Positions 2,116 through 64,000 of a DNA stretch of 64,000 nucleotides are shown here, piece by piece. Positions within the stretch are counted from its first letter, which is position 1, and each line of letters opens with the position of its first letter. Position numbers and translations under genes: made by a program. Source of the DNA: an uncultured virus (IMG/VR IMGVR_UViG_3300028591_000091) (taxonomy: Duplodnaviria; Heunggongvirae; Uroviricota; Caudoviricetes); the IMG/VR virus record IMGVR_UViG_3300028591_000091. One strand, written 5' to 3'. The notes beneath the pieces were generated by a model. The model was not told the DNA's origin, did not search any database, and saw nothing but the letters and a program-made list of their open reading frames with translations.

Positions 2116-2172
2116 AATTTTATAAATTTTTGTTATTATATTAGTAAGGAGTTGACCATTTTTGTGAAAATA

Positions 2173-7900: not shown

Positions 7901-8108
7901 TTTGTTTGGCCAGAGGAATAGCAGCTAAAGCTAATGATAAAGTTGAATACTCGGCAGGCGTTAGAGGATCACCACTAGCATTATACTCAGAGATGTCAAA
8001 AATATCATTAATTTCAATTTGGTTTCCGTCTCTATCTATTACTCCGTCGATATGAGTTAGAGGATAGAAAGTTTCACCATTTCTCGTAAGTCTCCTAATT
8101 TCACTCAT
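4968..8108 (-). CDS. tail fibre/receptor-binding protein: constant N-terminus (8108-~7590) fused to currently expressed cassette 2 (possible NlpC/P60-like Cys-His domain)
   Basis: Only cassette-bearing ORF with its own ATG and upstream promoter-like motif; tandem N-terminal repeat (DxSxxN...KGGMSI); site B in frame (FVQTSDNNYV); YGTVCSGL...GHIRMV resembles NlpC/P60 catalytic Cys/His. Confidence 0.75.
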   Translation of the reverse strand: MSEIRRLTRNGETFYPLTHIDGVIDRDGNQIEINDIFDISEYNASGDPLTPAEYSTLSLALAAIPLAKQKGGMSIRYIESSGHTYQQYRLSSSTFNTTTGNWISENIDNVPTASSDNLVKSGGVAEELALGGVYDVSAHNGGTTFASLSALLSDANLGTYIPTSVRKGGMSIKFVQTSDNNYVKFFCTAQNFTTDVTQWQGIDDDALICSENEIATLNSVRMDNAYEVSYTSADFKILLNGTFNNNRANKHIYLPVTAGEIYHIDGIDDYTLRVAFATTNAASANGNVPVVAGTSVYGISPNVSIWMKIPDGCTYLLLWRNDLDTGFIVKRAVSTFVGVSPQILTDEQKTQALNNIGAGQAIYQYNKIPFSSSVGSIRGSDGSAQSAPDSRMKTGYIDITRISNILYTRVCKSSTSAPTLGLAFYDSEKHFIPNSSVLETNSDHNGYVIDKTVVPNGAVYVRFTYWKNEKQGIFFFCDADTDGLAKKIKEVDSLKEDVESQTINNSILYNDLANKTNLQTLDIVALSTNRSSYLYNNGTIVSGSTTYGVRKFSIEENKVYLVSGRVYRHANACLCCFYDDNDIFLESYINSIGVSKDYENIAIIAPSNAAFVRVQFYNSETVSLKEYLVQQISFDPYDKPDNIGVYNALLKAAQLSTIKWTPKGRIPYNQGTYQPNIEKTGMIYSSVAEYSQFVAIDVSFETFMTAVNNPRSVVYTENVNKDNSTSAIGRTYHRGNCAAYYGTVCSGLIAYAYGLPMNITTTEIPGWDEMEKVDDQSAYGIKLADSLLMTGHIRMVTGIKRDKNNLPVEIEITEAAQGGVITTVYSDVASFNEILKEFGGNYVIYRYKKLYENREYTPQNQFVAVGDETLVPYTYNDDICPNYGEKANYIEGDNVVLNLRTDYADVGFTTLEVYKDDVLLESNAISGIDETLSGLSYGTYKARLTGSQNSEYCHFIVVNATVVQDGSSFSFASANATPTYYEFCNITGSKSHDIEGISTRRFTASELTAGVATPYGEIIATNDFPYLKVHFATDYGRAIKVILWTI
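7561..7587 (-). repeat. shufflon recombination site B (inside expressed gene)
   Basis: Minus strand TGTACAGACTTCTGACAATAACTATGT. Confidence 0.85.
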
Positions 8109-8417
8109 AATATTAATTTTTAAAATTATGTATTACCTTTCTATTTAGGTAACTTTACAAACACGCCCAATAAAGGGTTTTCTCCAAGAACCTCAAAACA
8201 CAACAAACACTATTTTCCGAAAGTTAAGGGTTCCGAGGTTCTAAGATTCCCTATCCTTTCTATAATTGTAAGAGAGAAAGATCAAATTTTAAGACTTTCC
8301 CTAAATATTATTCTTCTCAATATATAAGGAGAAGTGACATTTTTTTGATGTTTTAGTGGGTCAATTTAACTGAAAAAAGAGCATTTTTGTTATGAAATAA
8401 TAAAAAGTAGCTTTATA

Positions 8418-8750
8418 TTAGCTACTTAAAATAATAGTTCTTAGAGAATAACGATACTCTGCAAAAGCACATAAAATTTTATCTACATCCTTAAAAGATA
8501 TTTCAATTTCGTGAGATTTCATTTTTATAGGATAGCCAAGATAATCGTTAGGCCCTCTTTCAAAAGTAGAGTAAAACTCTTTTTCTAAAAAAATATTTTT
8601 TAGGTGTTTTCTTTTAAGAATCTTTTGCTTTTTTATGTCTTTGAGGCGTAGCCAAGGAATAACATAAAAGAAATCGTTGGGGAATTTATAAAAAATAGTT
8701 ATAACACTTTTATCTTCTGAAGGATAACCTATTATACATTCAACTTTCAT
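8418..8750 (-). CDS. hypothetical protein
   Basis: 110 aa ORF overlapping upstream gene. Confidence 0.6.
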   Translation of the reverse strand: MKVECIIGYPSEDKSVITIFYKFPNDFFYVIPWLRLKDIKKQKILKRKHLKNIFLEKEFYSTFERGPNDYLGYPIKMKSHEIEISFKDVDKILCAFAEYRYSLRTIILSS

Positions 8751-9300
8751 AAATTACTCTAGATATCTGAAAAGTATAAACTTTTTCTATCTCAGGTTCA
8801 TCTGCCAAATATTCACACTGACTTCTTTGTTCTCCTATATATTTTCCCCACTTACACCATCTCCATCCATCTTCCTCTGGTTGATCTTCTTTTCTGATGG
8901 CACATAGAAAGATAACAAACTTCTCTTTCGATTCCTGATAATATTTCAATTCAGGTATCTTTTCAAAAATTTGTTCCCAACTATCACAAACACCATAAGG
9001 ATAACTTATATATGCCAATCCTCTCTTATCAAGTAATATTGGATAATGTAATTCGGAAGCAAAATCGAGAGTTACATATTCTTGGCCCATAAACTTTACT
9101 CCCTCAAAACACGGATCATTTACGTCATAGTATTCATAAACTCCGGTAGATAATTTCTTTAGTATATTTCCCCACTTTAAGTTTCTAAGATTGTTGGCCA
9201 CTTCATCACCATCAACCTTTCTTATGTCTTCAATAACTTTCTCTACTCCTGGATAATCCCATACTTTAGATTCCGGATTATATATTAGATCAACAAGCAT
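8740..9300 (-). CDS. hypothetical phage protein (GWRWxKWGxYIG motif)
   Basis: 186 aa ORF with normal composition. Confidence 0.7.
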   Translation of the reverse strand: MLVDLIYNPESKVWDYPGVEKVIEDIRKVDGDEVANNLRNLKWGNILKKLSTGVYEYYDVNDPCFEGVKFMGQEYVTLDFASELHYPILLDKRGLAYISYPYGVCDSWEQIFEKIPELKYYQESKEKFVIFLCAIRKEDQPEEDGWRWCKWGKYIGEQRSQCEYLADEPEIEKVYTFQISRVIYES

Positions 9301-19083: not shown

Positions 19084-19662
19084 TCATCTATACCAAAACT
19101 CTAATATCCTTTGCATCCATCTTGGAGAAGCATATTTCTTGATTATCGTGCCATGATTGAATGCCCACTTATATTCATCAATCCGAGAAACAGGAATCCA
19201 GGCTATCTCATCAACTTCATCCTTTTCTCCTCCGGCTCCTTCAATCTCTAACCACTCACTTCTCCGTCTTCCTAGAAAAGCTGTATGTCTGATTGTAACA
19301 TTTCCATTATTACACAAGATAGGTTCAGTTTCTACTTCTACTTGCCTAATCTTTTTTATAGGAATATCAACACCACACTCTTCACGGGTTTCTCGCTGAA
19401 TACCTTCCCAAGAATCTTCATCACCTTCTAAGAAACCACAAGGACAACACCAATAACCCTGATAATCTGGTGTTCCTTTTCCTCTCTTCTCCGCTAATAC
19501 AGAATACTTACCCTCCACTACAGCATAGAAGAAACCAGAGATGGCACAATATCTTCCATCATATAATACTCTTACCTTATCTTTAGGGATTATCCAATTT
19601 TCACCTTCTTTCCTAGCTTCCCCTGATTCAAAGGCTAAGTATGGTTTATTTCTTTTTATCAT
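19084..19662 (-). CDS. Nudix hydrolase (ADP-ribose pyrophosphatase-like)
   Basis: Nudix box GFLEGDEDSWEGIQRETREECGV; C-terminal AFNH. Confidence 0.85.
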   Translation of the reverse strand: MIKRNKPYLAFESGEARKEGENWIIPKDKVRVLYDGRYCAISGFFYAVVEGKYSVLAEKRGKGTPDYQGYWCCPCGFLEGDEDSWEGIQRETREECGVDIPIKKIRQVEVETEPILCNNGNVTIRHTAFLGRRRSEWLEIEGAGGEKDEVDEIAWIPVSRIDEYKWAFNHGTIIKKYASPRWMQRILEFWYR

Positions 19663-19843
19663 ATATCAATCCTTTCATTCCAGTTACAGAAAAATAGACC
19701 ATAGTACCTAGAGAATCTTCACCGTGTTCCTTTTCAAGATCTTCTAACCTTTTCATGACACTCCTCATACCCTCACGATTCCCCTTCGCTAATTCTCGGA
19801 TAAATTTTAAACAAAGATTCTCGTATATCATGTAATCTATCAT
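19646..19843 (-). CDS. hypothetical protein
   Basis: 65 aa, overlapping operon gene. Confidence 0.5.
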   Translation of the reverse strand: MIDYMIYENLCLKFIRELAKGNREGMRSVMKRLEDLEKEHGEDSLGTMVYFSVTGMKGLIYDKKK

Positions 19844-20025
19844 TTCTTAAACATTGATACTAAAAATTCTCCTATCATTCCTAACATTACTCCAATAACA
19901 ATGATCGCCCAAATTCCTATCCACTCTACTCCAGTAAATCCTAAAAGTATGAAGAATATAGCAACCAATGTATAATATACCATCCGAAATATACTAGTGT
20001 CTTTCATGATCGGATAAAATTTTTC

Positions 20026-20232
20026 TCATGAATCGTATTTTTTAAACCAGAAATCACGCTCAGGAAACCAGATACATACTAATAACCAGGGAAGCCAAGC
20101 AATCATAAACCAGATATTTACGAGAGCTTGAAGAATTTTATATCTTCCTATTATTGGAGGCTGTACATTTTCTGCTATAGCCCCAAATACAATTCCCACT
20201 ATTAGATATACAAAGATAAATACCGTAATCAT
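20026..20232 (-). CDS. small membrane protein
   Basis: Two hydrophobic segments; overlaps pncB stop. Confidence 0.55.
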   Translation of the reverse strand: MITVFIFVYLIVGIVFGAIAENVQPPIIGRYKILQALVNIWFMIAWLPWLLVCIWFPERDFWFKKYDS

Positions 20233-21422
20233 AATCTCCCAGTCACATACTTACAAAACTCCACTTCTTTTGGATCACCCATCTCTTTTCCTAGTTCATC
20301 CGGTACTTTTACGGCAGGAATCCAAGGACTGTTATCATCAAACTTTATAGCATCCAATTTCATAACAATGTTCGGATTTGCCAATTTCATACCAGGAATA
20401 TTATTGGTTAAAGCTCCGCCAATACCTCCAGATGCACTACCAATACTACCTTCCACACTCTTCACTATATCCTTAAGATCGAACATGTTGATAGAATTGG
20501 AATAAACCATACCTTTCTGAAGAGGATCAACTTTCAAGTCCTTAAGGCGAGATATGTACTTCTCTGTTGCAACTTCCCAAGGACCAGAATCATGACGATA
20601 ACCTGTAGAAGCCTTCATGTAAAGGGTGGTCATACATTTCAAAAACGAATCCTGACCTATAGTATCACCTAAAAGAATACCAGAGTGACCGTTGAAAACA
20701 TCCATCCAATCCTTTACACATTTATAATTACCCTCACGATAACCATAGACAGCATTATAAACCATAAAGATAGAATGTGCCATAGTTCCTACAGCCGGCA
20801 CTCCTAAACGAAGAGCTTGATATACCGACGAATTACCAACACAATATTTGGCTTCTTTCTTTATTATATCATCTACCTTATCTTGCCACTCTGCACTGAA
20901 ACGACGCCTGAGACCAAATTCCGAGAACTTAAGACCATACTCATTTGAAAGACTAATCTGCTCTCTCAAAAGATCAAGGGCCTCTTTCTCTGCGGACTCT
21001 GTCATAGAATAACCATAGACTTTATTTCTAAGTTCAGCAAAGATAGGAAGTACATTAGTCTCCCAGAATACACCTCTCCATCCATAATCCTCCATGATAC
21101 ACTGAAATTCTCCATTCTCATCAAGGTAAGGATTAATAGCTTCAGGACGGAAAATATCGGCATTCTGGTACCAATCATGATACCATAAAGGAAGCCACCA
21201 CATCTTTTCGGCAACCTTCAATTTCTCTTCCTCCGTTCCCTTCAATTCTCTGAGCTTTGAAAACTCTGACTTTATCTCATCTACAAAGCTTTGATCAAAC
21301 TTTTCCCCAGACCTTCGATTCTTAAATTTAAACCGAACTTTCATGTTGGGGAATTTCATCATAAGCGCATACGATATGTTCCACTGATACACATCGTTCT
21401 CATACTTACTTCTTATAATCAT
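20229..21422 (-). CDS. pncB: nicotinate phosphoribosyltransferase
   Basis: SEFGLRRRFS, GTMAH, RHDSG and NIVMKL motifs of NAPRTase. Confidence 0.85.
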   Translation of the reverse strand: MIIRSKYENDVYQWNISYALMMKFPNMKVRFKFKNRRSGEKFDQSFVDEIKSEFSKLRELKGTEEEKLKVAEKMWWLPLWYHDWYQNADIFRPEAINPYLDENGEFQCIMEDYGWRGVFWETNVLPIFAELRNKVYGYSMTESAEKEALDLLREQISLSNEYGLKFSEFGLRRRFSAEWQDKVDDIIKKEAKYCVGNSSVYQALRLGVPAVGTMAHSIFMVYNAVYGYREGNYKCVKDWMDVFNGHSGILLGDTIGQDSFLKCMTTLYMKASTGYRHDSGPWEVATEKYISRLKDLKVDPLQKGMVYSNSINMFDLKDIVKSVEGSIGSASGGIGGALTNNIPGMKLANPNIVMKLDAIKFDDNSPWIPAVKVPDELGKEMGDPKEVEFCKYVTGRL

Positions 21423-49380: not shown

Positions 49381-50022
49381 TTACATGATGCTTTCGAGTT
49401 CTTTCTTCAAGTTTATAATCCTGAAGAATCTATCCACACATTTCCAAGAGGTCAACCATCTTTGTTCTCTATCCTCTGGTTCATTAGATGTTCCATAAGA
49501 TATAAACAGGTCTTCTATTCCTACTACCGAATCTGCTAATATCTCTTTCAATGTTTCATTCCCAAGATATTCCTTAGCCTTCCCCGGTTCTAACTCCGCC
49601 AAACTAAGATGGGGAATGTAGGAAGAATATTCAGACTTAACCTCAAATTTTATACTCAGTCCTTTATTGATCAGAGACAGTACCTTAAAAAGTGGTGTCC
49701 CTTTTCGAAGTTTCAGGATCAAATAGTCAGTATCATTTTCAAAAGATCCAAGTTCGAAAAGGTCTAAGACGCTATAGAAATTATCTCCCTTGATCATTCC
49801 TTCAAGCCAATCCCAATCCTCTTTTCCTAAGATCTCCTTAATATCCCCTAACAATCCTTCACATTCTATCTTCTTTCCTTGTGAGTATAGTAAAGTAATG
49901 TGTGAGTCAAGTTCCACTCCAGTATCCTTAAGATCCTCCTCTTTGAAGACACAACCAAGACTAACAGGAGTGGTCAAGTTCATCGCCAGCATTAAACAGC
50001 TATTAATATCTTTCTTTTCCAT
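49381..50022 (-). CDS. 2H phosphoesterase (T4 gp57B/Acb1-like)
   Basis: Two HxT/S motifs: SHITLLYS and YIPHLSLA. Confidence 0.7.
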   Translation of the reverse strand: MEKKDINSCLMLAMNLTTPVSLGCVFKEEDLKDTGVELDSHITLLYSQGKKIECEGLLGDIKEILGKEDWDWLEGMIKGDNFYSVLDLFELGSFENDTDYLILKLRKGTPLFKVLSLINKGLSIKFEVKSEYSSYIPHLSLAELEPGKAKEYLGNETLKEILADSVVGIEDLFISYGTSNEPEDREQRWLTSWKCVDRFFRIINLKKELESIM

Positions 50023-53000
50023 TATCCTTTACCTTGATTTTTTAACCTAAACTTTGTCTTCATAGTCTTCAGATCATTCTTTAGACTAGAACCTCCTTGA
50101 TTGAATCCCTCTTCGTCACTGATCGTAAGTCCGAGAGCTAACAGATTATTAAGGAACAACTGATTATCCTCCTTTGCTGTATCTTTTCTTGCACCGGTGA
50201 TAAATTCCCGTGCGTTTCTAGATAACAGTGCGGACAACTCATCTTCACCTATCTTCTGTCCAGTCAATCTATACCTACCTTTACCTAAGATCGGCTCATT
50301 ACGCTTAGAACTGATATCTACTCCTGCCATACTTGTCGTCACTTTAGCTGAGTAACTGGGGATATGATATAATTCCTCTAAGTTCATCCATCCGCACTGT
50401 AATTTTTTCTGCACGGGGACAAACTTACCGGTCATTCCACTCCTTACTTTCTCATACTCTTCGGGACTTAAAACTTCTTTCAATTCCCCAAGATCAGTAA
50501 CTTCAGATTCTGGCATTAATATCTCAGACTGACTTTCTACTCCAAGTTCATCCATCCATTTCTCAACAATCTCCGGAGTAAAATCACTAAAGCAACCTAC
50601 CTCAAGATAATATACCTCCTCAATCGGCTTAGACTCATGCAACTTTATAAATTCTTCTGTGCTTAAATCTGTATAACGGCCAGGATAATATTTCTCAATT
50701 AGCGGCTTTATTTTCTTTTGCCCAGATTTTGTTTTCTTATACTCCTCTACTAAATCATATATTCTATGAACACAATTACCTAAGGATTGCTCCATCAATA
50801 CACCAGCTATCTTACGATTTCGATTATCCCGTTATTTATCATAACAGGTCAGACTATATCATTCCATTTAACAGGATCGATACACTTAGTCTTTGAATTT
50901 AGAACAATATATCCTAAACTGCTGATCCTCATTTTCTTTGAGTTCCAGCATTACTATCGATTTTCTTTACTCTCTCGAATAAAGCGACAAATCATTATAG
51001 TTTATCGTTGAATAGGGATTCATCACACATTCGCACCTGTACTGCTTTCCTGTATTCTTATCAACCATTATAGGCATCAATTCATCAGGCTTTACTACAG
51101 ATACCACACCCTTACCTCCATAGTTATTAGTAATTTTTGAACCGACCATTAAAGTAGTTCTCTTTATGAGTCTAATTCTGACCGTGTATACAACCTTATA
51201 TTCATCTCTATTCATATTAATAGGACGAAGACGATCAGCTGCTACATACTCCGGGAACTTATCATAAATTATCTTTCGGTCTGCATTCTTTTCATACTCT
51301 TCGGCTACTTCTTTTGAGGTGCGCGAAAAACGATAATCTGGTGTTTTTACTGATTTAGGTATTTTCGGCTTAGTTTGCTCCTGAATCATTACATCAGAAA
51401 CATAAGCCTCATCAATGTTATTCGGAACTTTCAGGTAATCTTCTGTAGTAAAATCTGTAATATTCTTTCCAGAAACTTCACCAAAAATTCCACCCAACTT
51501 CTCAGCTAGGACTTTATTAACATCATCCAATCTGTTAGTCTTATATACACCAATTACATTATCTCCTGACTTAACCCTAGTTCCTATAGGCGCAATCCAT
51601 TTAAGAGCTGAGGTGTTTTTTATATTAAGCTGAAGATCAATAATGCTATAATGTACACACCTATTAGCAAATGATTCTGATACTACAACGGCATCTTCAT
51701 TTACATAACCAAAATATGCATGGAACAAAACTAATGCATTAAGTCCACTCTTATAGGTATCAGTAGTTAAGTTAGTGGCTCCTGAAATTATATCACCCCT
51801 CTTTAACTTCTGACCTACCTTAACTTTCGGCTCAGTATATACACAAACATCATTCTGTGATTGTATAGCTGTGCGCCTAGGATGATTTATAATATCACCG
51901 TCAGGCAATTCTATAACAATGTTGGATTCTGTTATTTCTTTGACTTTTCCTTTATCATAATTAAATTTCTCATTCAATACATTATCTTTGAGCTCCTCCT
52001 TATGCCCAGTTCCTACAAGAGGCCTTTGAGCATTAACTAGAGGAATTGCTTGTTTTAACCAAATATTCTGTTATTTATCACAACAGTTTAGACTATATCA
52101 TCCATGTTTTACCTATAGTCGTTGATCTCAAAATATAAATTCTGAGTTGCTGATTCAAGATTAAACTCATTCCAGCAGTTAGTAAAATTTTCATAGTTTT
52201 CTTTTCCTATGGCACTTTATAAACAAAATGCTAGTTCCCATTGATATACGTACCGAGTCTGTATAATTAATGAAAGGAATTCGTCTAGTAGTTTCAGAAA
52301 GACGATAATCTGGTTCAAGATCTATTAAATCTGTCTCTTCAACCTTTACCATCTTTCTTTTCATTCTATATTTAACTTCAACCATTCCACTAGGGTCTGG
52401 CTTAAGTCTTCGGTTTTTATAATCTACAAATTCTGATGCTACAACTTTTGAATTAAGATAATCGATGTAAAATAACGATACTCTCTGAAATTCTTTATTA
52501 TAAGCACTATACAAAACGCCATCGTCTGTAATTTTTGTGCAAACAGTTAGGCTATTTTGAATGTTTGTATTGTTATTTCCTTATTCTTATTTTTTCAAAT
52601 AAGAGTAGTACTATATCATCCTAATTTAGGTTTCACATATAGTCGTTGAATATAAAATCAGTTTATATTAATTACGTTTTGTTTTTAAACCCTTTTCTAT
52701 TAGGTATTTTACGTAATTCATACTAAATCTATTTTATACTGCTGATTGGGTATTACCTTCCCAGCAATTAAGTGAAATTATTCTCGACAAATAATTTATC
52801 GGTGTCATTTATACTCTATTTTTCGATAGAGATTAGAACTATATCTTTTCTTTTGTACATAGTCGTTGAATCTAGAGAATATAACCCTAGACTGCTGGTT
52901 TTCCAAAAGGACATTCCAGCAATTCTCAAAATTCTATCTCTTTTTTACAGAGAACAGACTAACCTATGTAATCTGCAAAATCAATTATGTCTGCAAATGT

Positions 53001-53930
53001 GGGATTAAAAGCCACCGTTTCAGGCACAGTAATTTTATTTCCCAAGCTTTCTAAGTTTGCAGCATTAATTCCCGGTGGTACTTGTATTCCAGTATCTCCT
53101 TTGGAATCAGAACTTCCTTTAAAAAACCTAGCTGACATTGTAGAAATGATCGTAAGTTGGTCCGCCAGTTTTCCATACTTTACAAAATAACTAGAGATGT
53201 GTCTACGAGCGCTATTATAAGTGCGTCCGTTGTTTGATCTAAAGATATGTTTCATAAAGCCTGTTGGTACACTTTCTATCGACTTATCAATAATCAAGTC
53301 CTTTAAGCGATCATCTCCAAAAGCTAAGCAATCATTAATCAGACGCGTAGTAATGTATTCGGGTTTATAATCAATATCTAACTTAACTTGGAATTTCTTT
53401 GTTTGATATTCCGATAATTTAAGTAGTTCTTTGATTTCACCCTCAGCATCATCTATCTCTTCATATTTTAGCTTAACTTCTTTATCTATCAGTCTTAAGT
53501 TTGGATCATTTCTTTTAATTTTCAAGATTCGACGATTAATATCATATCTTCTATCGTAGTCAAAATTTATGATATAATCACCAGAGCCAGACATTCTTAT
53601 TCGACAATCATAATCAGAGCTTAGGCTGTTTGTTGCAATTCGATAAGCTCCCTCAATGATGAAAACCCCTTCAACTTCTTTGGGAACTTCGAATTCACTG
53701 TATTTGATTTCGTCTGGTTTATCGGTTGTTGTATATTCTATTCTAACCTTGAATGTAGCAGTTAATCCATTCTCTACATAATAAGAGGCTGGTTGATCTG
53801 CTTCTTCAACGATAGAATGTGTCAGTGTAGCTATCTTAACCTTAGGATTAAAAATATCTGCACTACCAACAAACCTTTCTACCATTATCTTTGCTCCTCG
53901 ATTCTTGAAATATTCGTTAAAGCTACTCAT
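50022..53930 (-). CDS. rpoB: phage DNA-directed RNA polymerase beta subunit, 5 exons: 53930-52971, 52805-52798, 52578-52228, 52059-51004, 50820-50022 (3174 nt, ~1057 aa)
   Basis: Spliced junctions restore beta motifs: DTPINNNTNIQNSL (cf. ETPEGPNIGLINSL), MGTSMLKQAIPL (cf. MGANMQRQAVP), NPYSTINR; also GYVNEDA, GSKITNNYGGKGVV, GQKIGEDE. Exon sum is a multiple of 3. Confidence 0.88.
50821..51003 (-). ncRNA. group I intron, beta intron 4 (183 nt)
   Basis: P UGCUGGAA, Q AUCAGCAG, R UCAAAGACUA, S GAUAUAGUCU; exon ends in U, intron ends in G; restores TI|NRK. Confidence 0.85.
52060..52227 (-). ncRNA. group I intron, beta intron 3 (168 nt)
   Basis: P, Q, R and S present; restores SM|LKQ. Confidence 0.85.
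52579..52797 (-). ncRNA. group I intron, beta intron 2 (219 nt)
   Basis: P, Q, R present; S variant UAGUACU; restores TPI|NNN. Confidence 0.8.
52806..52970 (-). ncRNA. group I intron, beta intron 1 (165 nt)
   Basis: P, Q, R present; S variant UAGUUCU; restores FAD|TP. Confidence 0.8.
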
Positions 53931-53931
53931 T

Positions 53932-54288
53932 TTATACTAATGCTTTTATATTTAGCTGTTTATACTCACAATCTACCGAGTTAAAGAATTCCTCAATCTC
54001 ACCTTTAATCTGATCTTTTAAATCCCGAGCTGCAACATATTCGCCCATAGGAAGACCTGCAGTGGATCGAAAGAAAGCTGTATAAGTAACTAGATAATTG
54101 TAAGTATCTTTCAATTGATATAATACCAGCTTTACAGAAAATAATTCGTATTTTTGTGGGATTATATCAGCCAATCTGTCATATAAGTTGTCCCTAGCCT
54201 GAATTATACTAGGGTCTTGACTGTCTAATACATTATAAGGTATTTCATAAGACAGAGCTATGTTATAATATGTATTATCTCCACCCAT
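53932..54288 (-). CDS. hypothetical protein within RNAP operon
   Basis: 118 aa, 1 bp from the beta start. Confidence 0.7.
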   Translation of the reverse strand: MGGDNTYYNIALSYEIPYNVLDSQDPSIIQARDNLYDRLADIIPQKYELFSVKLVLYQLKDTYNYLVTYTAFFRSTAGLPMGEYVAARDLKDQIKGEIEEFFNSVDCEYKQLNIKALV

Positions 54289-54293
54289 AGTAT

Positions 54294-54476
54294 TTAAAAA
54301 TCAGCATCCATCATATTTCCTCCAGCTTTCTTTGTCTTAGCTGGTTTTTCTTTTTCTTCAGCCACATCCGTTTTAGGTGGGGTAGCTGTATTACAAACTA
54401 CCTCACCATCTTTACGAATGACTATGCTGATTGATAACTCCTTTTCAAAATTAGGAACATCAAATTCAATCTTCAT
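54294..54476 (-). CDS. small hypothetical protein within RNAP operon
   Basis: 60 aa between beta-prime and 53932. Confidence 0.6.
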   Translation of the reverse strand: MKIEFDVPNFEKELSISIVIRKDGEVVCNTATPPKTDVAEEKEKPAKTKKAGGNMMDADF

Positions 54477-54493
54477 AATCTTTTGCCTTTTCT

Positions 54494-57400
54494 TTATTTG
54501 TTTTTAGTATCATCAAGTTGGTTATTCAAGAGAAGGCCAAGAATTACTCCAGTCATAACATCATTTCCAAGATTTACTTCTCCTCGTAATGCCTTATTTA
54601 CTACTCTTGAACTATAACCATAACTTAGAACAGTATAGAACGATTTCTTTGAAAGTACTGATGTCTGAGTTCCCTGATATTCGATATCCTCAATCTGTGC
54701 TGTCTTAGGATTATACGTTATATTTGTTAATCCTGTGAACAACAACTCAATGATATCTTCCTGTGTAGAGCTCAAGCTTGATACTCCACTCTTTGCGAAA
54801 CCTCCATCAGTAAGGGTATAAAACTGCTTTCGGAAGATAAGATATATGTCGTTCAGTCTATTTTTACCTAGTTCAGAAATCACGTTGCTCATATTAACAA
54901 CTCCTGAACAGATTCTATCAAACTTCCTAATTTGGGTCCCTTCTGAATAGAAATACATGCACTCCGGATTGTACTGATATGTTCTATCCCCGATTTTTAC
55001 TTCAATATCTCCATTCTTGTTCTCCACATATCTGATAACCCCATCATCATATGCATAACAGTCCGAAATCAAGATGTTATCCTTTTCAAAATATCTAAGT
55101 CCTGCAGATTTTCTAGCTCGCATAAGATCGATCATAGAATTAAGTTTGCTAATTGGACTTGATGTATTATAAGCACAACATACGATCTCACCCTTTTCAA
55201 ATTTATCTTTTGCTAATGTTACCAAGTTATCTGGACGAGGATACTTAAGCTCTCCTCCTCCTCTAACCTTAAGAAATATAAATTTTCCTTCTTCTCTGAA
55301 AGTGCATGTCTTAGGAGCATATAAATATCCATCCTTGGACAAAACCCTTTCATGGCCCAAACCCAAATATATTCCTATATTTAGATAGACTATATCTTAT
55401 TTAACTATAAATTAGATATTATTAGTCGTTGAACTAGTTTTTAAAATACTAGCTGCTGATTAACCTTTTGGTACTTCCAGCAATTTTATCTATTTTTGCA
55501 CGGCAGTCATTTATTTTAGAAGGCTTTAATTTACCGTGCTTCAGTCCCAGTGCAGCTTGAGTCGTTCCTTCAGTTAATGATCGAGCGAAAGACAAACCTA
55601 TGGCAGCCCCAGGAGTAAAATCTTTAAAGAATTTATTTATAAGGTCGGGAGTAATGACGTTAAGGTCTCCCGTTCTTTTTGATACAATAGATCTCACTAA
55701 AACCAAATCATCCTCGTCTGGTTTCCCTTTAAAATCTGGGTAAACTTTTCCGGAAGGAGCAGTTCTACCACCAGCTTTATAACGAGGGATTAGGATTCCA
55801 GGATTCTCAGCATCTTCTCCATCTTGATAAACATAATTATTCAAGAGGAATGAAATTTGTCGCGTTAATGATCCCGAATTTGGCCACTTCTCTAGTCAAC
55901 GCGCAGAAAACTAGAGATGTTAATGTTAGTCATATTTCTATAACTATTAGACTATATCACCTAAGTACAGTGTCTAGTCGTTGCTCTTATCACTCTTTAC
56001 TTCCATCTCTGTTGCGGTCTTCTCTAATCCTATCTGGTGTTTTTCATTAAGATCTCTAAGTATCTCTCCCAAACCAGTTAAGAATGCACCGACAACAGTA
56101 ATAATTTTAATAATTGTTTTTGGATTCATCATATAGGTAATAAGTTGCTGATTAAAATTGTTTTTCTTCCAGCAATTAAACTGTATTTTAACAGGCGCAC
56201 CGTTACAATTCGGGCTTAACCTTTCACGCCTGAAACTTTGATACTCTGTAAGCTCCTATTTTCAATGCTGTGGAATATCATATCTTTTTCTGAAAGACCA
56301 GTTAGAAGGGAACCTTTTGTTATTACGGGGACCTCTGAAACTCCGCTTACTATCAATTGAGGCATATTGAGGGCGGATATACTAGATATCTTTACTCGAC
56401 CTGCACGATTAAGCTCGTTTTTAAGATCTTCAGAAAATGAAGCTTCAATCTCTCTTTCATATTGCTCATATTTCTCTGTCAAAAGAACCAATTTTTGTCG
56501 ATCCGTTAGGTCAGGAGAGTCAGCAATATTACGAATTTCCTGATAAGTTTTTGTATTAGTGGGAGTGTAAAGCGTAGGAAAATCAAACGTTACTACACCC
56601 GCAAGAGATACTACTCGGAGACAGAATTTTTGAAGTTCTAGTCGTTTTTCAATTCCATCATCAGGATAATCATATAAGAATGCACTAAGCTTCATTGCGG
56701 ATTTAGCATCAAATCGTGTATACTTATCTTTGGTGAAATTAAAATCATCCATATTTCTTCCCAGAATTTTTGAAATTCTAATTTTACCATAAGTTGTTAC
56801 CTCTGATTGATACTTTAATCCATCGCCAAAATCATAAGTAAATACAATAGGCGTTCCAATTTTTAAAATTTTATTTACTTCAACATCAAGAACCAATTTC
56901 TTATAATCATCATAAAAGTATCTTGGCTCTTTAAGCTCCTCTGGATCTTCCGGTGTCCATTCAGAAGCTACTGCTAACCCATTAAGTACTTCATGATTTA
57001 TCGTGGCAATCGGTTCGCGATTTTTCTTGTAATAAGCTACATATCTGGGGCTCATCTTACGAAAAGTGTCCTCAGAAACCTCGCTTGGTACTAATTGACT
57101 ATTAGTTAAGAAATTTCTTACTTAACATAGACTGTATCATCTCGCTTTATTTACGCGGTTTTGTACATCAGTCGTTGAAAAGAAATCATTATAGATTCCT
57201 TCTGCTGATCTGAATTTAATTTTCATTTCCAGCAGTACTCAAAATTTTCTTCTACATAACATAGAAGCTACTCTTTTCAAATAGCTACAGTATCCGATAT
57301 ATCTAATAATCTCTTATTAGTCTAGCATATATCTTCATCCCTAATAAGGGATGGTGAGCACTCTAGGGAAAATTATTTCATTTCCTATGCGTTACGCTGA

Positions 57401-60400
57401 TAACCATATAAATTACCAGCTCGGTATTAGCTATAAAACTTTCACCGAATTTGCTCACTAATAATTTGAAACATTACTGCTTCAAACGGCAATATTGTTT
57501 ACCATCAAAATCCTTTATGTTCAACCAGGCACACTACTTCTGGCCCGCCTTTTGGCAGCTATACATCTCTGTATAGAACAGACTATATCTTCATCTCTAT
57601 TAAAAGAGAGTCTGGCTTTTCCACTCGTGATTTGAGTGTACTCCCATTTGGGATAGTCGTTGAGGTTGTAAAATATCAAATAGTCAGTTTGATATTCATT
57701 AATTATCTTCGTTATAAAAAGACCACCCGTGATCCTTCTTTACGACACCATTTACCCAGTTACTCATAGTGGTTTTGCTTACGTTTGCTGCTTCTGCAGC
57801 TTCCTTTATACAACCATATATAGTACCGTCAGGGGAAATAACTTTCTTTGCGTTAACTTTATCTCCTCCATGTTTTTGTTTAGATTTCATATACTCTCTA
57901 TAGGCAGGATCTAAATATTTTTTCTTATGAGTCTCTGACTGTTTTCGTAAATATTCTGGATCTTTAGCAAGCCTTTTTGCAATCTCTGATCGTCTTTTTC
58001 TATACTCAGGATCATTTACATCTAATTTACTAAAATTTTCTGCAGCTCTTTTTCTAAAGCTTTCAGGGTCTTTTTTAACACTCTCTTTAGCAAGTTCTGA
58101 CATTTTTTTCTTAGTTTCCTCTGTATGTCTTTTTCCTTTATGAGATTCAGAAAGTTTCTTTTTGTGTTCTTCTGATTTTGGAACACCTTTCCTAATTTTT
58201 GATAGCTTTTGTTTATGATCTTCTGATAGTTTTCTGCCTTTTCTATCTTTAGAAGCCCTCTCTTTTTGTTCTTGGGTCCAAAGACGACCAAAATTTGGAT
58301 TATTTTCTCCTTTTAATAACTCCGACATTTTCTTTCTATATTCATCTGATTGGACTTTAGCAAGAAATCTTTCACGGACTTTACTTGCAGTTCTAGAAGA
58401 AAAATGCTTTGTTACTGTAGAATTCCTTTCTATTTGGTTTCGTCTATTACTATTGCTATTGTGCCCATTAAACATGAGATTTGCAGCAGTTAATAACCCA
58501 TCTGAGTCGGGATATACTTCCAATATAACCAAATGAGCCATTAAATGATATCTAATAGGCATTTTTACGAGATTTTCCTTAATATCTGTACCACCTAATG
58601 TTTTTGGAAAAATATGATGTACCTCGTAGTATACAGTTGACAATTCTTCCTCTGTCATTGATTGGCATCGTTTTATCAATCTAATATATAATCTTAAGTA
58701 TTTACATCTATGATTATATTCAATTTCTGTGAGACCCTCCTTTTTTATTTCAGGGAGGTGATAAGTCTCATAAATTAAATTAATTTCATCCATATAATTT
58801 TAATTTTAAGCTTTAGTTTGTTTCTTTACAACCTGCTGATTGTCTCTATCCTATGAATTTTTAGGGTTGGTGACTAAATCCAACATTAACCTCCTATCAT
58901 AAGCCTATCAAGAGTTTCCAGCATTTAACCAGATTTTATAACACCTATTTTGTTAAGCGTTAAGAGGAGAACAATGAAGAATCTTTTACATCGCTGTAAT
59001 TTTATAATTGATTCTTCAGACTATACCTTTCTCTCTTTGAGATTCTGTATATAGTCGTTGGGCTTAAGACATTATAATCTTAAGTTGCTGATCTGGATTT
59101 CAAAATATCCGTTCCAGCATTTAGCAGAATTTTACAGCAACCTGTATTTTTGATCGCTGGTGGAAATCCGATTGCGTATTCGTCCCACAATTTTATTTTT
59201 ACGCAGAATAGACTATATTCCATTTATCCTTTGATTTATCACCTAAGGATAGACTATATTTTCTGTTGTGCCTTCTATAGTCGTTGAACCTAAGTTATTT
59301 TAAACCTAGATTGCTGATTTGAGTTTAACCTCATTCCAGCAGTTTAAGCATTTTACTTGCACAAATTATAGGTTATGCAAACTGGGCTGGCGATTCACCA
59401 AAACCATTCGTCCTTCTGCATATTCTTTGAAGAGTTTCTGAGTCTCCTCGTTCATTGCCTCCTCGCGTGTAGCTTTCTTCGCTTCTTTCTCAGTAAAGTT
59501 AAGTTTTTCCATGAGATGTTTGATGAAATCCTCTCTAAGCATCTCGTATGCGATCGACGTCGGAATTTTTAGTTCATCAATTTTAATATCCATGGCAGGC
59601 ACAATAGGACATCTAGCTGAATTTTTTGTTCGTACAGCATAGAGTTCTCGTGCCAAATTTTCTTTACTAGTATTAAGAAGGTTGGTTGCTTGTTTGATAA
59701 CTGCATTTAAGAACGCACGGAGAAGCGCAGTATATCGAACTCTTTCTCCGGGAGTTGAAAGTTTACTCATTACGGTTTCATAGTTTAAGCCGTCGTTAAC
59801 TTTCTTATCCTCTACACAGCACAGCCAAATAATAGCGCTATACAAGGTAGAAAGTTTGTGAGTGCCCATCATTTTCTTACCATCTTTATAGGCAAGTGTA
59901 AAGGGTCTCATAGCGGCGGGCAAAACTAGATAGTAATGATTAATTAGTTTTCTAAATTCTGTTAAGCTCTCCGGAAAATGCTTACTAATAATTTCGAGTA
60001 ACCCTTCATAAGAACATTTTTTCTCATCTGTAATAACTTCTGAGATAACTAGTTCTTTCTTTTTAGGGTTATAATCAAATTGGCAAGTATCGAACACTTT
60101 AATTCCCAGTTTCTTTGATCCTCTACCTGCTGAATATCCTAATCTACTAAGGTTTTTGTCATTAAAATTCATAACGATCTTAGTATCTTTGAATATCTCA
60201 TCGAATTTCTGTTTAAAGATTTCGAATCGTAGAGCATTAAGATAATAGAAAGGTAGTTCAATTCTTGCAAATCTTCTTAGTGCTGCATCTTTTGTGTAAA
60301 CCTTAGTACCGCAATAGGGACAAGGTTGTGGGTCCGGAGAGGCTTGACGAATTTTTCCACACACACATCTATCAACCATCGGAGAACCAAAAATTTCAGT

Positions 60401-60544
60401 ATCATAAACTCCTCCTGTAATTGGTTGGAGTCTATCGAATTTAAGGTTTAGGTCTCCGTGTGAATAGAGTACATGATCTTTTCCATCAGACCTCGAATAA
60501 TCTAGAATGTCATCATCTGTTAATAGCTCTAATGATATTGCCAT
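54494..60544 (-). CDS. rpoC: phage DNA-directed RNA polymerase beta-prime subunit, 8 exons: 60544-59375, 59220-59153, 58974-58956, 57512-57501, 57294-57281, 57098-56226, 55884-55533, 55357-54494 (3372 nt, ~1123 aa)
   Basis: Zn finger CVCG...CPYCG; spliced NRQPSLH EYSLFCVKIKLWDEYAIGFPPAI CSPLNA DFDG DTVAI QLVP; bridge helix RSLQSIKVSGVPNSGSLTRQ; trigger loop TEGTTQAALGLKHGG. Confidence 0.9.
55358..55532 (-). ncRNA. group I intron, beta-prime intron 7 (175 nt)
   Basis: P1 GCACGGU/GCCGUGC with U-G; P, Q, R, S; P9 with GGAA tetraloop; restores KHG|GH. Confidence 0.85.
55885..56225 (-). ncRNA. group I intron, beta-prime intron 6 (341 nt)
   Basis: P1 CAGGCGU/GCGCCUG; P, Q, R, S; restores GV|PNSG. 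Confidence 0.85.
55974..56132 (-). CDS. 52-aa intron-internal ORF (not an endonuclease)
   Basis: MMNPKTIIKIITVVGAFLTGLGEILRDL...KSND*, between Q and R; stop overlaps R. Confidence 0.35.
   Translation of the reverse strand: MMNPKTIIKIITVVGAFLTGLGEILRDLNEKHQIGLEKTATEMEVKSDKSND
57099..57280 (-). ncRNA. group I intron, beta-prime intron 5 (182 nt)
   Basis: P1 AGCUAU/GUAGCU; P, Q; R CGACUG and S CAGUCU covary; restores AI|QLVP. Confidence 0.85.
57295..57500 (-). ncRNA. group I intron, beta-prime intron 4 (206 nt, different IB-like core)
   Basis: P AAUUCGGUGAA, Q AAUACCGAG, R GUAACGCAUA, S AAGAUAUAUGCU, P3 GUGAGC/GCUCAC; restores DFDG|D. Confidence 0.8.
57513..58955 (-). mobile_element. group I intron, beta-prime intron 3 (1443 nt) carrying HNH homing endonuclease
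   Basis: P near 58916, Q near 58834, R near 57654, S near 57580; restores NA|DFDG. Confidence 0.88.
57699..58793 (-). CDS. intron-encoded HNH homing endonuclease with NUMOD3 repeats and C-terminal HTH
   Basis: EVHHIFPKTLGGTD--ENLV...H--AH; repeated SEEHKKKLS/TEETKKKMS; IYGCIKEAAEA. Confidence 0.88.
   Translation of the reverse strand: MDEINLIYETYHLPEIKKEGLTEIEYNHRCKYLRLYIRLIKRCQSMTEEELSTVYYEVHHIFPKTLGGTDIKENLVKMPIRYHLMAHLVILEVYPDSDGLLTAANLMFNGHNSNSNRRNQIERNSTVTKHFSSRTASKVRERFLAKVQSDEYRKKMSELLKGENNPNFGRLWTQEQKERASKDRKGRKLSEDHKQKLSKIRKGVPKSEEHKKKLSESHKGKRHTEETKKKMSELAKESVKKDPESFRKRAAENFSKLDVNDPEYRKRRSEIAKRLAKDPEYLRKQSETHKKKYLDPAYREYMKSKQKHGGDKVNAKKVISPDGTIYGCIKEAAEAANVSKTTMSNWVNGVVKKDHGWSFYNEDN
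58975..59152 (-). ncRNA. group I intron, beta-prime intron 2 (178 nt; 3-prime end probably A at 58975, alternative G at 58972)
   Basis: P1 CAGCGAU/GUUGCUG; P, Q, R, S; restores AI|CSPLNA. Confidence 0.8.
59221..59374 (-). ncRNA. group I intron, beta-prime intron 1 (154 nt)
   Basis: P1 UUGCAU/GUGCAA; P3 UGCUU/AGGCA; P, Q, R, S; restores SLH|EYS. Confidence 0.85.
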
Positions 60545-60556
60545 AATTGTTTAGTT

Positions 60557-61615
60557 TTAAATGCTTTTCCAAATGATTTTCTTAGCCAGGTCGGAATCTT
60601 GTGCATTTTCAGCGATCCATTTTTTCCATACCTGTTTTACGTCTGCTATAGCTTCACTTCGTGTCTTATCCTTCAGTTTTTCATAGATACCTGCTTCTGG
60701 ATCTTGATAAACTTCGATAAGGTCTGAGATTGTGTCCTGGGTGATAGTTTTGCTAGTATTCGTAAACTTAGATCTAAACTCTCTATAAACTTGTACATCA
60801 TCATAGGTAAGTTCTAGATCTGAATAGTCTGAGACAATACGAATTTCAGCAGGCTCTCTTTCAAACCAGGAGAGTCCCATCTTTCTCACTCGGTCGGCTA
60901 CTTTTTGTCTTCCCAACTCTTCATACTTTCTTGCCAGAGCCTCAACGATATCATACTTTGTTCTCATTATAATTTGGAACGCGTTATTGATTTGATCGTC
61001 GTACTCTTTTGGCATGGTAGGACAGTTTAGGATTAGGTCATAAAGTCCAGACGAGAACAAAAATATAATCAGAGCTGGAATTTGTCTAAGTTTTCTACGG
61101 CGTGAGAATACGGAGTCCTTAGATAGATCGCGATTGGCCAAATAATAAACGAACTCTGCGATTAGGTTTCTAGCCTCCTCTACAAATTCCTTATTAAAGC
61201 TACTCGTGTCATCTCCAAGAAAGTCCTCATCTACGTCTTGGCCACTTAGAGGTTCATCTGGGGTATAAACAGAGTTAGTGACGCGATTCTTTCCTGTTTT
61301 ACCCAAGATAGATCGTACCACATCATTAATAGTTTTCTGGCTTGAATGTTGGGGATTTGCAGAAACTAAGACTGTAAGCAAATCTAACATCGTATTATCA
61401 TCTTGTCTTTTACCGATAGAAACGATGTCATCATAGCCTAGCAGGAACTTAAGTTCTTGTTCCCCTAATTTTCCACCATACTCTTCCTCTATTAAACCCT
61501 CATCTTCCTCTTCTTCTGATCCAACATCTTCATCCACGTCTTCATCTGGGGAATTTTGAAAATATCCTTCCTCTTCCAATTCCTCATTGTCGTCGATTAA
61601 ATATTCGTCATCCAT
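60557..61615 (-). CDS. hypothetical protein with acidic N-terminus, first gene of RNAP operon
   Basis: 352 aa, 12 bp upstream of beta-prime. Confidence 0.75.
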   Translation of the reverse strand: MDDEYLIDDNEELEEEGYFQNSPDEDVDEDVGSEEEEDEGLIEEEYGGKLGEQELKFLLGYDDIVSIGKRQDDNTMLDLLTVLVSANPQHSSQKTINDVVRSILGKTGKNRVTNSVYTPDEPLSGQDVDEDFLGDDTSSFNKEFVEEARNLIAEFVYYLANRDLSKDSVFSRRRKLRQIPALIIFLFSSGLYDLILNCPTMPKEYDDQINNAFQIIMRTKYDIVEALARKYEELGRQKVADRVRKMGLSWFEREPAEIRIVSDYSDLELTYDDVQVYREFRSKFTNTSKTITQDTISDLIEVYQDPEAGIYEKLKDKTRSEAIADVKQVWKKWIAENAQDSDLAKKIIWKSI

Positions 61616-62218: not shown

Positions 62219-62447
62219 CTTTGTAGCTCCATTTTATCCAACCATAGATATTAATAATGACATAGAAGATAAACATAATAAATTGTCCCATATTGAAGGG
62301 TCCTATTATGTTATACAAAATCCAAGCAAAGTTACCTATAGTCCATATTACAAATGCATATTTATTTTTCTTGATCACATAATAATTTCCTATGATGGCG
62401 CAAGAACAGCCTATAGCACTTAGGAAATCAAGAAAGGTTATCTCCAT
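62205..62447 (-). CDS. small PnuC-like three-helix membrane protein
   Basis: Hydrophobic; AFVIW--GN--W and INIYGWIKW resemble the PnuC C-terminal repeat; adjacent to nadE. Confidence 0.55.
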   Translation of the reverse strand: MEITFLDFLSAIGCSCAIIGNYYVIKKNKYAFVIWTIGNFAWILYNIIGPFNMGQFIMFIFYVIINIYGWIKWSYKDENI

Positions 62448-63345
62448 TACAGTGTTTCATAAGTTCTTCCTTACTTGGTTCTCCTCTATCTATTCCTTTC
62501 AATTCTAGAACGACTGGAAGATGTTTTCTTTTAAATTCACTTCCCTTATGTCTTTTCATCACTTGTTCCACAGTCTCTTCTCCATATTTATCTGTCACAA
62601 GATTTAATAGAAATAGATTAGCTTCTGTTGGCCTCTCTTTATATCTTAGAGCAGTCATCAGAATCTCATCCAGTTCTTCATAGGACTTGAGAGAAGGTGC
62701 TATTTGTGCTAGGTCTCCTCCTTCCTTTACTCCATTTCCGTCGGTGGGTGTTAGACCTATAGAATCTTTGAGTGCTTCTTTCTGTTTCTCTGTCTCCGCT
62801 ATATTTTCCAACATCCACTTAGCTAACCCATACACTTCATGTTTCCAGAGCTGTGCGATAGGTGAAACATCTCCTTGATCTCCTGCTATAGTAAAGAAGC
62901 CAAGATTATTTTCAGAAAGGTTATCTGTATCTATGAGCACTCCTTTCTTTATTCCAGCCAAGTTTCTAAGATATGTCATTCTTAGACGCGCCTTTATATT
63001 ACCCTGTGAAATTGGCGTAGAAGAACCTGCACCTAATTCACACCACCTCTCTATAATCTCATACTCTTTCTGCATTTCATGAGTAAAGAAATTTTGGTAA
63101 CTAATAAAAGATTGTCCAACTTTATTTGCTGTTCCCGTTTCTTCTCCCGTATTAGTTGTGCAGGGAAGAGACACGCCATAAAAAGACAGGGTAGGGTCTC
63201 GGCGCGTAACTTCATGACATATTACGGCGCAGACAGTAGAATCAATTCCTCCCGAGATCCCCAACACCATAGACTCCAGGTTATTCTTTTTTAAATATCC
63301 CAGGAGTTCGGTTACACTAGATTCAAAAACCTCTTTATAATTCAT
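62428..63345 (-). CDS. nadE: NH3-dependent NAD+ synthetase
   Basis: LGISGGIDST, GNIKARLRM, T-NLSE--LGFFT--GD and K-EVY motifs. Confidence 0.92.
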   Translation of the reverse strand: MNYKEVFESSVTELLGYLKKNNLESMVLGISGGIDSTVCAVICHEVTRRDPTLSFYGVSLPCTTNTGEETGTANKVGQSFISYQNFFTHEMQKEYEIIERWCELGAGSSTPISQGNIKARLRMTYLRNLAGIKKGVLIDTDNLSENNLGFFTIAGDQGDVSPIAQLWKHEVYGLAKWMLENIAETEKQKEALKDSIGLTPTDGNGVKEGGDLAQIAPSLKSYEELDEILMTALRYKERPTEANLFLLNLVTDKYGEETVEQVMKRHKGSEFKRKHLPVVLELKGIDRGEPSKEELMKHCNGDNLS

Positions 63346-64000
63346 ATACTTCTACTCCTTCTTGATTCATCCATTCCTTCAGCTTAGTACCATCATCTAT
63401 AGAGCGTATTCCATCCATAAACATATAAAATTTACTGCCTTTTAAGCACTTCTTAAGATTTTTTGCTGTCTCTAGAACACAATAATCTCCTGCTATTCCA
63501 CATACTATAATATCATTTTGTAGATTGATATAAGAATAGGAATCTTCTGAAGCACTAGCCAGACTAATAACTTCTGGGTCATCGTCACATATTTCGGCAT
63601 CTCCTCCAAAAGCTCCATATTCTTCTTCCCCAGGTATATCCCCCTTTTTGAAGATATCATATGTATTAGAAAGTATACTTCTCTCCATCAGACTTTGTTC
63701 TTTATCATAGAAAAAGATATTATCTAGATTTTGGAACCCTCTTGAAACGACCGCATCAAAAAGTTCATTAGGAATAGATGCACCCTCACTATATTGAACA
63801 CAGTGGTTAGGCCAAATTCCTCCGTTCTTTTTAAAACTGCAATCTTCCAAGGAGTGCCAATCTACTGTAAAGATAACTTGATTAATTTCTTGATCTTTTT
63901 CAATCAGTTCTTTAATTCTTGGAACAACCTCTTCTCCGCCTTTCACGTACAAAGACCCTTGGGGGCTATAAAAATCTTTTTGAACATCTACAACTATTAA
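63335..64000 (-). CDS. pncA: nicotinamidase (isochorismatase family), 5-prime partial
   Basis: Frame is open to the window end (LIVVDVQKDF); DWH, WPNHCVQ, KG and GIAGDYCV motifs. Confidence 0.9.
   Translation of the reverse strand, partial: LIVVDVQKDFYSPQGSLYVKGGEEVVPRIKELIEKDQEINQVIFTVDWHSLEDCSFKKNGGIWPNHCVQYSEGASIPNELFDAVVSRGFQNLDNIFFYDKEQSLMERSILSNTYDIFKKGDIPGEEEYGAFGGDAEICDDDPEVISLASASEDSYSYINLQNDIIVCGIAGDYCVLETAKNLKKCLKGSKFYMFMDGIRSIDDGTKLKEWMNQEGVEVYEL

Follow-up and report, generated by a model that had tools for sequence, protein, structure and literature searches.

Group I introns and micro-exons across the active-site codons of an RNA polymerase β′ gene from a presumed giant rumen phage

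The split β′ gene and its product

The window analysed in this study is the whole of a 64,000-nucleotide (nt) stretch of DNA from an uncultured virus of the Caudoviricetes (IMG/VR record IMGVR_UViG_3300028591_000091). On its minus strand, positions 60544-54494 encode the catalytic subunit (β′) of a multisubunit RNA polymerase (RNAP) in a gene that is divided into eight exons by seven interruptions of 154-1443 nt each. Joined by their coordinates, the exons gave 3372 nt and a product of 1123 amino acids (aa) with one terminal stop. A first-pass annotation, made from the letters of the window, had proposed that one subunit requires seven splicing events; its exon and intron coordinates and its 1123-aa reconstruction were reproduced exactly, and seven removals did restore a single frame. 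It had also held that no open reading frame (ORF) contains the catalytic heptad NADFDGD, and that exons of 68, 19, 12 and 14 nt lie between five consecutive introns. Both statements were borne out by a six-frame search and a reading of the strand: NADFDGD and DFDGD were absent from all six frames of the whole 64-kilobase (kb) window, and the sole DFDG was found at 57512-57501 on the minus strand.

All exons and introns of the gene lie on this strand. Exon 1 (59375-60544, 1170 nt) encodes aa 1-390 and ends in NRQPSLH; it is 67% identical to L001, a related locus on a 254-kb viral contig. Exon 2 (59153-59220, 68 nt) is collinear with L001 and with 19 uninterrupted homologues, and exon 3 (58956-58974, 19 nt) encodes (I)CSPLNA. 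Exon 4 (57501-57512, 12 nt) encodes DFDG, and exon 5 (57281-57294, 14 nt) encodes DTVA and two-thirds of a further codon, which places the third catalytic Asp on the exon after DFDG, as had been proposed. The remaining exons are longer: exon 6 (56226-57098, 873 nt; 60% identity to L001 by tblastn), exon 7 (55533-55884, 352 nt), which is supported by comparison with L001 and the homologues, and exon 8 (54494-55357, 864 nt including the stop; 66% identity to L001). Every insertion site falls in a highly conserved motif: one in NRxPSLH, four around NADFDGD, one in the bridge helix (after aa 718) and one in the trigger loop (after aa 836), the last two being further sites that had been predicted and were recovered here.

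The assignment of the gene to the β′ type was confirmed by independent comparisons. Exon 1 matched Pfam RNA_pol_Rpb1_2 (PF00623) at 31.4 bits against a cut-off of 25.3. In the related locus L002, aa 1-719 are encoded in one ORF, which matched the same family at 72.9 bits and aligned with solved bacterial β′ chains (E 6.5e-14), including their NADFDGD catalytic loop. In L001, the sequence runs from NRQPSLH through NADFDGD to QLVP in one ORF, and the trigger-loop site is intact. A profile-free search with exon 1 against 1.8 billion representative proteins returned 281 relatives, many of them uninterrupted with 1013-1109 aa. When the joined product was aligned with 19 such uninterrupted homologues (1013-1109 aa), it was collinear over aa 3-1118 at 27%-33% identity, with zero gaps at the seven junctions; this alignment had been suggested as a check of the reconstruction. 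The segment before NADFDGD, which includes exon 3, showed constant spacing in 19 of 19 homologues, and the heptad was in register. The segments that we take to be the bridge helix and the trigger loop, by reading them against bacterial motifs, were likewise gapless against the 19 homologues. Among GenBank phages, no match was found by megablast with 54400-60600 or by tblastn with exon 6. Exon 1 gave distant tblastn matches alone at E ≤ 1e-5 (24%-34% identity; Rhizobium phages and Escherichia phage EP_H11), and Bacillus phage AR9 was absent among them.

Spliced RNA and the intron family

Part of the stretch was present in 24 public runs, six of them RNA. Contigs of the runs X1, X4 and X6 (RNA) and X2 (DNA) were mapped on 50000-61000 at 90% likeness; X1 and X4 represent one sheep-gut sample, and X6 is bovine. 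Contigs of X1 joined 59220/59375, skipping the 154 nt of intron 1, and 55357/55533, skipping the 175 nt of intron 7, whereas the joint 55883/56225, at which the 341 nt of intron 6 are skipped, was found in both X1 and X4. A further X1 joint, 58956/57098, starts at the end of exon 3 and has 26 letters between its two sides, the reverse complement of which is exon 4 followed by exon 5; it thus spans introns 3, 4 and 5. The X1 pieces at these joints (874, 832, 727 and 194 nt) had no differences from the window, and X1 record 5 covered exon 6, also with no differences. DNA run X2 contained none of those joints and had uninterrupted contigs over introns 1-2, 6 and 7. The micro-exons were included in all displayed RNA joints, and no skipping was seen. 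The search of metatranscriptomes across the predicted junctions, which the first-pass annotation had suggested, was therefore positive for introns 1, 3+4+5, 6 and 7, and the seven-intron gene is spliced as predicted, intron 2 entering through length arithmetic alone.

Two other joints were recorded. A second X1 joint, 55883/56277 (depth 3.8 versus 8.0), uses a U in exon 6 that is 51 nt further upstream, together with a 3′ site displaced downstream by 1 nt; it would shift the frame and may represent mis-splicing or an assembly artefact. The joint 57492/59397 skips 1904 nt, has eight other letters between its sides and was found in both DNA run X2 and RNA run X6; its probable source is a related strain in which another intron occupies the L001-type site immediately ahead of VNRQPSLH. 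A search of JGI metagenome contigs for the spliced form (exon 2 end, gap, exon 4) gave no matches.

The seven interruptions of β′ and four in the adjoining RNAP β gene share the features of one group I family. A P1 helix ending in U·G at the 5′ splice site was found in all 11 introns, with 6-8 base pairs (bp) in β′ and 4-6 bp in β, and the guide lay at intron bases 10-29 in every case; the claim that each of the seven β′ junctions has such a helix thus held. By chance, a P1 of 6-8 bp with U·G also arose in 8 to 356 of 2000 shuffles per β′ intron. A terminal G was present in 10 of the 11 introns (six of seven in β′). Exact CAACGACTA matches numbered eight in the 64 kb, all on the minus strand at 52.1-59.3 kb, and an alignment of ten interruptions showed conserved P4, J6/7-P7 and P7′ words. 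RNAalifold, applied to the seven shortest of the 11 introns (excluding four whose inserts are long or whose sequence is divergent), recovered P4, P6 and P7 with compensatory changes in six pairs; P3 and P5 were present and covarying in all seven by manual reading, and P8 was tiny or absent in intron 1 and β intron 1. A covariance model built from the same seven introns gave 50 further matches at E ≤ 0.01 in 11 related loci, all on the strand of the gene, and no match elsewhere in the window.

Individually, intron 1 (59221-59374, 154 nt) and intron 2 (58975-59152, 178 nt) are without an ORF. Intron 1 has a P1 of 8 bp with U·G and a G as its last base, and scored 126 bits with the family model, of which it is a training member. 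Intron 3 (57513-58955, 1443 nt) has a P1 of 7 bp and a P10 of 6 bp. Intron 4 (57295-57500, 206 nt) and intron 5 (57099-57280, 182 nt; 131 bits, also a training member) each have a P1 of 6 bp with U·G and a last base G, and introns homologous to intron 4 occupy the same site in the related loci L008 and L012. Intron 6 (55885-56225) has a P1 of 7 bp, and the site of intron 7 (55358-55532) is uninterrupted in L001. The general Rfam model Intron_gpI matched introns 3, 4, 7 and 5 below its gathering score, at 46.5, 45.6, 36.9 and 24.4 bits (E-values of 1.8e-9, 3.2e-9, 1.3e-6 and 0.0074 in a 10-kb search). The intron 3 match covers 57559-57741, and the match in intron 4 ends 8 nt short of the actual 3′ splice site. 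The Rfam alignments placed P3, P4-P6, P7 and P8 in introns 3, 4 and 7. No β-gene intron was matched, and both introns of L001 were missed when that locus was scanned with Rfam by E-value.

An endonuclease gene is found in one of the 11 introns. The intron 3 ORF (57699-58793, minus strand, 364 aa) sits in the P6 loop and matched Pfam NUMOD3 (8.8e-15) and the homing endonuclease families PHROG 655 (4.6e-33) and PHROG 314; its match to the I-HmuI NUMOD-like family (0.0054) fell short of that family's cut-off. Judged by its sequence, with an HNH region and NUMOD repeats encoded within the intron, the product is an I-HmuI-like HNH homing endonuclease. The 5′ part of the intron 3 ribozyme is nearly identical in the window and in L016 and L017, and the endonuclease ORF diverges sharply among the three just beyond its start, as though the ORF had a history apart from that of the ribozyme. 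Intron 6 contains a 52-aa ORF (55974-56132, minus strand) of no known family, with a hydrophobic N-terminal half and no PHROG match; the L001 intron at the same site also carries a small ORF.

In the proposed mechanism, P1 would form between the internal guide of each intron and the 6-8 bases that end its 5′ exon, with the U·G wobble as the last pair, and P10 would form between the bases immediately ahead of the guide and the start of the 3′ exon. Cleavage of the 5′ site by an external guanosine would free the exon end, which would then attack the 3′ site. Of the 12 bases of exon 4, those at 2-7 pair in the P10 of the intron before it and those at 7-12 in the P1 of the intron after it, leaving base 1 alone free. 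Since these pairings cover all but one of its bases, exon 4 would serve both as active-site codons and as ribozyme substrate. Coverage was also found on exon 5 (P10 on bases 1-4, P1 on bases 9-14) and exon 3 (P10 on bases 1-4, P1 on bases 13-19), both partly by manual reading. The seven β′ guide sequences are all different and should therefore favour exon inclusion over skipping. For tandem Tetrahymena introns, the available text of PMC10136302 describes experiments in which distinct guides favoured exon inclusion. We infer that splicing is protein-independent and initiated by guanosine, and that the introns arrived by homing. Insertion at the most conserved codons fits homing, and imprecise loss there would be lethal, as outlined in a review (PMC12908238, in the portion available). 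The ORF-less mini-introns probably spread by co-conversion or through endonucleases acting in trans.

Neighbouring genes and related loci

The RNAP β gene (50022-53930, minus strand) adjoins β′ downstream, so that the two adjacent genes hold eleven introns (7+4). Its counterpart in L001 is uninterrupted (1062 aa, Pfam RNA_pol_Rpb2_6). The four β introns, all on the minus strand at 52806-52970, 52579-52797, 52060-52227 and 50821-51003, belong to the same family as those of β′. An exon of 8 nt (52798-52805, minus strand) lies between β introns 1 and 2 and is bridged in RNA: the joint 52578/eight letters/52971 was found in X4 and X6. The reverse complement of the eight X6 letters equals window 52805-52798 exactly, and the X4 exon departs from the window at two bases, 3 and 6, both changes being synonymous in frame. 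Because the P1 of the downstream intron includes base 6, the guide of the X4 strain is predicted to carry a compensating change. RNA joints were also found for β intron 4 (50817/51001, in X1 and X6) and, in the related strain of X6, for β intron 3 (52049/16 letters/52234); DNA run X2 had none of the β joints. For β intron 3, 52226-52059 was rejected in favour of 52227-52060 by the U·G rule, and 52227-52060 agrees with L001 and the X6 RNA.

Elsewhere in the window, genes of a nicotinamide adenine dinucleotide (NAD) salvage set were noted at 62428-64000 and 19084-21422 (minus strand). They comprise an NAD synthetase, a NUDIX hydrolase, an ORF with a weak match to nicotinamide phosphoribosyltransferase (E 3.8e-6) and an ORF that is nicotinamidase-like by manual reading, the sole match of which is a PHROG of unknown function. 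A 337-aa ORF at 1102-2115 (minus strand) had a weak tyrosine-integrase match (PHROG 1, 3.4e-9). Most other large ORFs of the window had no PHROG match, and a tRNA scan found none.

Using a query of two aligned sequences, we found 12 related loci on 11 IMG/VR contigs of 76-401 kb (L005 is on the contig of L001); a search with exon 6 alone found none. These loci were 57%-69% identical in exon 8 and differed widely in intron load. The β′ gene has one interruption in L002 and two in L001 and L004, whereas that of L010 has at least 11 introns (eight matches of the family model and three further matches of the core motif). L010 spans 998-9036 (plus strand) of a 329-kb contig, so that a coding sequence of 3.4 kb takes up approximately 8 kb, and a 12-nt exon encoding (I)HFPI was read manually in it. 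The bridge-helix site of intron 6 was interrupted in 10 of the 10 distinct relatives whose locus covers it. The cut points within the heptad varied, with a slash marking the cut: the 12-nt DFDG exon of the window recurs in L008, L012 is cut as NADFDG/, L009 as NA/DFDGD, and L003, L010 and L011 as NAD/FDGD, the last three with exons of 11 and 23 nt (manual reading). In the protein library, nine of 19 relatives of 370-440 aa ended inside the catalytic heptad.

Competing explanations and comparison with known systems

Taken together, these findings make it very likely that the gene at 60544-54494 is intact and expressed, that it encodes the β′ subunit of an RNAP belonging to a giant rumen phage itself, and that it has been colonised by seven group I introns of one small-ribozyme family. 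Several observations weigh against this conclusion. The RNA evidence consists of assembled contigs rather than raw reads, the X2 DNA is from another sample, and X1 also contained unspliced sequence (e.g., 52798-53462). Rfam RF00028 gave no match in the window at its gathering score (50 bits); introns 1 and 2 had no Rfam match at E ≤ 10, and intron 6 gave a 14-bit fragment alone. The family model itself missed introns 3, 4 and 6 and β intron 2, whose inserts are long or whose cores are divergent. For intron 2, the joint between exons 2 and 3 is not among the displayed RNA rows. With a 19-nt exon 3 and the supported 5′ site (P1 of 7 bp with U·G, abutting P10 of 4 bp), the intron ends in A58975, and the one combination that keeps the frame while its 5′ site follows a U and its 3′ site follows a G (manual enumeration) has its 3′ end elsewhere, at G58972. 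The check by covariance models thus had a divided outcome, as the general model stayed below threshold on all seven β′ introns and the family model recovered copies in the relatives. The Rfam shortfall is not decisive, because the family-specific model and the RNA data override it. As for the spliced contigs, they might derive from a co-occurring intron-less strain, by DNA carry-over or from its mRNA, instead of from splicing of the window allele; RNA libraries can contain DNA, and intron load is highly polymorphic among relatives, L002 having a single β′ intron. This is very improbable, given that the X1 joint pieces had no differences from the window whereas the nearest relatives show 57%-71% protein identity, that X2 has no such joint, and that an allele without introns 1, 3, 4, 5, 6 and 7 yet with identical exons is unlikely. 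The fragments could also be read as a decaying pseudogene whose function is supplied by a second, intact β′ gene, since automated gene calling gives fragments alone and truncated ORFs of the β′ family are common in the protein library. Against the exactly restored reading frame, the existence of spliced RNA, the retention of the same split organisation in many relatives and the finding that all six exon 2 differences from strain L017 are synonymous, the chance of this, as judged from the window and its relatives, is negligible. Finally, the phage might make use of the array, either as a weapon or recombination barrier through the endonuclease or by tying polymerase production to the supply of guanosine triphosphate or to timing. 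An intron-encoded HNH enzyme of phage PhiPA3 cuts the RNAP gene of a competitor, according to the text available from PMC11620839; intron occupancy differs sharply between relatives, and the 178 nt of intron 2 differ from those of L017 at approximately three positions and by a single 2-nt indel, versus six synonymous changes in the 68 nt of exon 2. Such a use is nevertheless doubtful, as ten of the 11 introns are without an endonuclease gene and insertion at conserved sites is the expectation of selfish homing alone.

The 3′ end of intron 2 was considered separately. In X1 record 5, exon 6 is preceded by 113 nt, namely the 26 nt of exons 4 and 5 and a further 87 nt. X1 record 7 ends 30 nt into exon 2, which for k = 31 contigs implies that record 5 starts at exon 2 base 1; therefore, exons 2 and 3 together comprise 87 nt, or 68 + 19. 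The terminal A that follows from a 19-nt exon 3 was kept in three of three strains (the window and two from metagenome contigs), and the guanosine-binding pair of P7 looks unchanged by manual reading. If exon 3 were 16 nt instead, intron 2 would end in the canonical G58972, and the protein would be one residue shorter, without the Cys before SPLNADFDGD. In the other members of the family, the 3′ tail beyond P9 measures 5-8 nt and its last two bases are UG or CG, which an ending in AUUG would resemble, and the sole in-frame U and G pairing favours the same choice. However, the length arithmetic of record 5, the constant spacing of the segment in 19 of 19 homologues and a P10 of 4 bp for the 19-nt start versus 2 bp for the 16-nt start (the latter by manual reading) make the shorter exon unlikely. 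We consider the terminal A the probable ending, by a modest measure, and leave the remaining share to other possibilities. Placing the 5′ site after A59150 or A59161 together with a terminal G was rejected for lack of a P1, and the intron 2/exon 3 stretch had no match in the viral-contig search.

An intact gene split in this way has practical consequences. Gene callers report the polymerase as fragments, and with ORFs of relatives that stop in the heptad, any phage RNAP catalogue or phylogeny resting on ORFs of this sort is truncated. The correctly included natural exons of 8-14 nt set a lower bound on the exon that a group I ribozyme needs, and the seven tandem ribozymes, each with its own guide, are a natural test bed for how splice sites are told apart. 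Relatives differ in where they split the same seven codons (NA/D, NAD/F, DFDG/D), so that the RNAP active site can serve as a charted hot spot in which to study how introns come and go and how co-infecting phages compete. Confirmation of the terminal A in intron 2 would bear on the chemistry by which 3′ splice sites are chosen. Tentatively, and as a combined claim that we hold possible rather than probable, the clade may have the densest self-splicing arrays so far observed in any viral or bacterial protein gene (seven introns here and at least 11 in L010), with exons down to 8 nt that are largely covered by flanking guides, codons for the catalytic Asp residues that are constrained by the protein and two RNAs, and an intron 2 that ligates after a conserved terminal A as a natural omega-G exception.

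Searches of the literature on introns in phage NADFDGD, group I introns in rumen-phage RNAP genes and phage group I micro-exons did not find this arrangement described. A close likeness is Bacillus phage AR9, a giant phage with its own multisubunit RNAP genes interrupted by several introns carrying homing endonucleases. In its GenBank record, g189 (virion RNAP β) is joined from six pieces and g145 (the N-terminal part of β′) from three, with two homing-endonuclease genes inside. The β′ of AR9 is encoded by separate N- and C-terminal genes (g145 and g154), whereas that of the window is a single 1123-aa gene with seven introns, next to a β gene with four. The intron density, which the first-pass annotation had called extreme, is indeed so against the literature compared but is not unique, considering the six pieces of the AR9 gene and the relatives with at least 11 introns. 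In PhiPA3, as far as the available text of Birkholz et al. (Science 2024, PMC11620839) describes it, a group I intron with an HNH endonuclease, the gp210 intron, lies beside conserved catalytic aspartates in a jumbo-phage RNAP β gene. That case concerns a single intron with a demonstrated role in competition, whereas the window has eleven introns, ten of them without an endonuclease gene, known from sequence and RNA. Staphylococcus phage Twort orf142 similarly has three group I introns with a short exon between two of them (PMC10136302, available portion); that exon is 23 nt and partly skipped, whereas the exons in the window are of 8, 12, 14 and 19 nt, and the displayed RNA joints show inclusion alone. 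Exons of fewer than approximately four codons "occur regularly in mitochondrial genes" between group I or II introns, in the wording of the text available from PMC10352661; splicing around such organellar mini-exons is often assisted by proteins, whereas the mRNA of the window belongs to a phage and is spliced in a bacterial cell.

Many small group I introns in essential genes of large gut phages are also known from Jug phages and Zeta-group crAss-like phages. The text available for the former (PMC12880540) gives an average of 18.5 introns per genome and an average intron length of approximately 206 nt, with splicing of 37 of 76 introns confirmed by metatranscriptomes, and that for the latter (PMC7886860) gives up to 14 introns per genome and RNAP ORFs that are "drastically disrupted", a point left unresolved in that source. 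The genes named in these texts are terL, nrdD, DNA polymerase, MCP and PolB, and micro-exons are not mentioned in them. The kind of intron-split phage gene is already known, and what is new in the window is the degree (7+4 introns and exons of 8-19 nt), the RNA support for inclusion of these exons and a possible terminal A.

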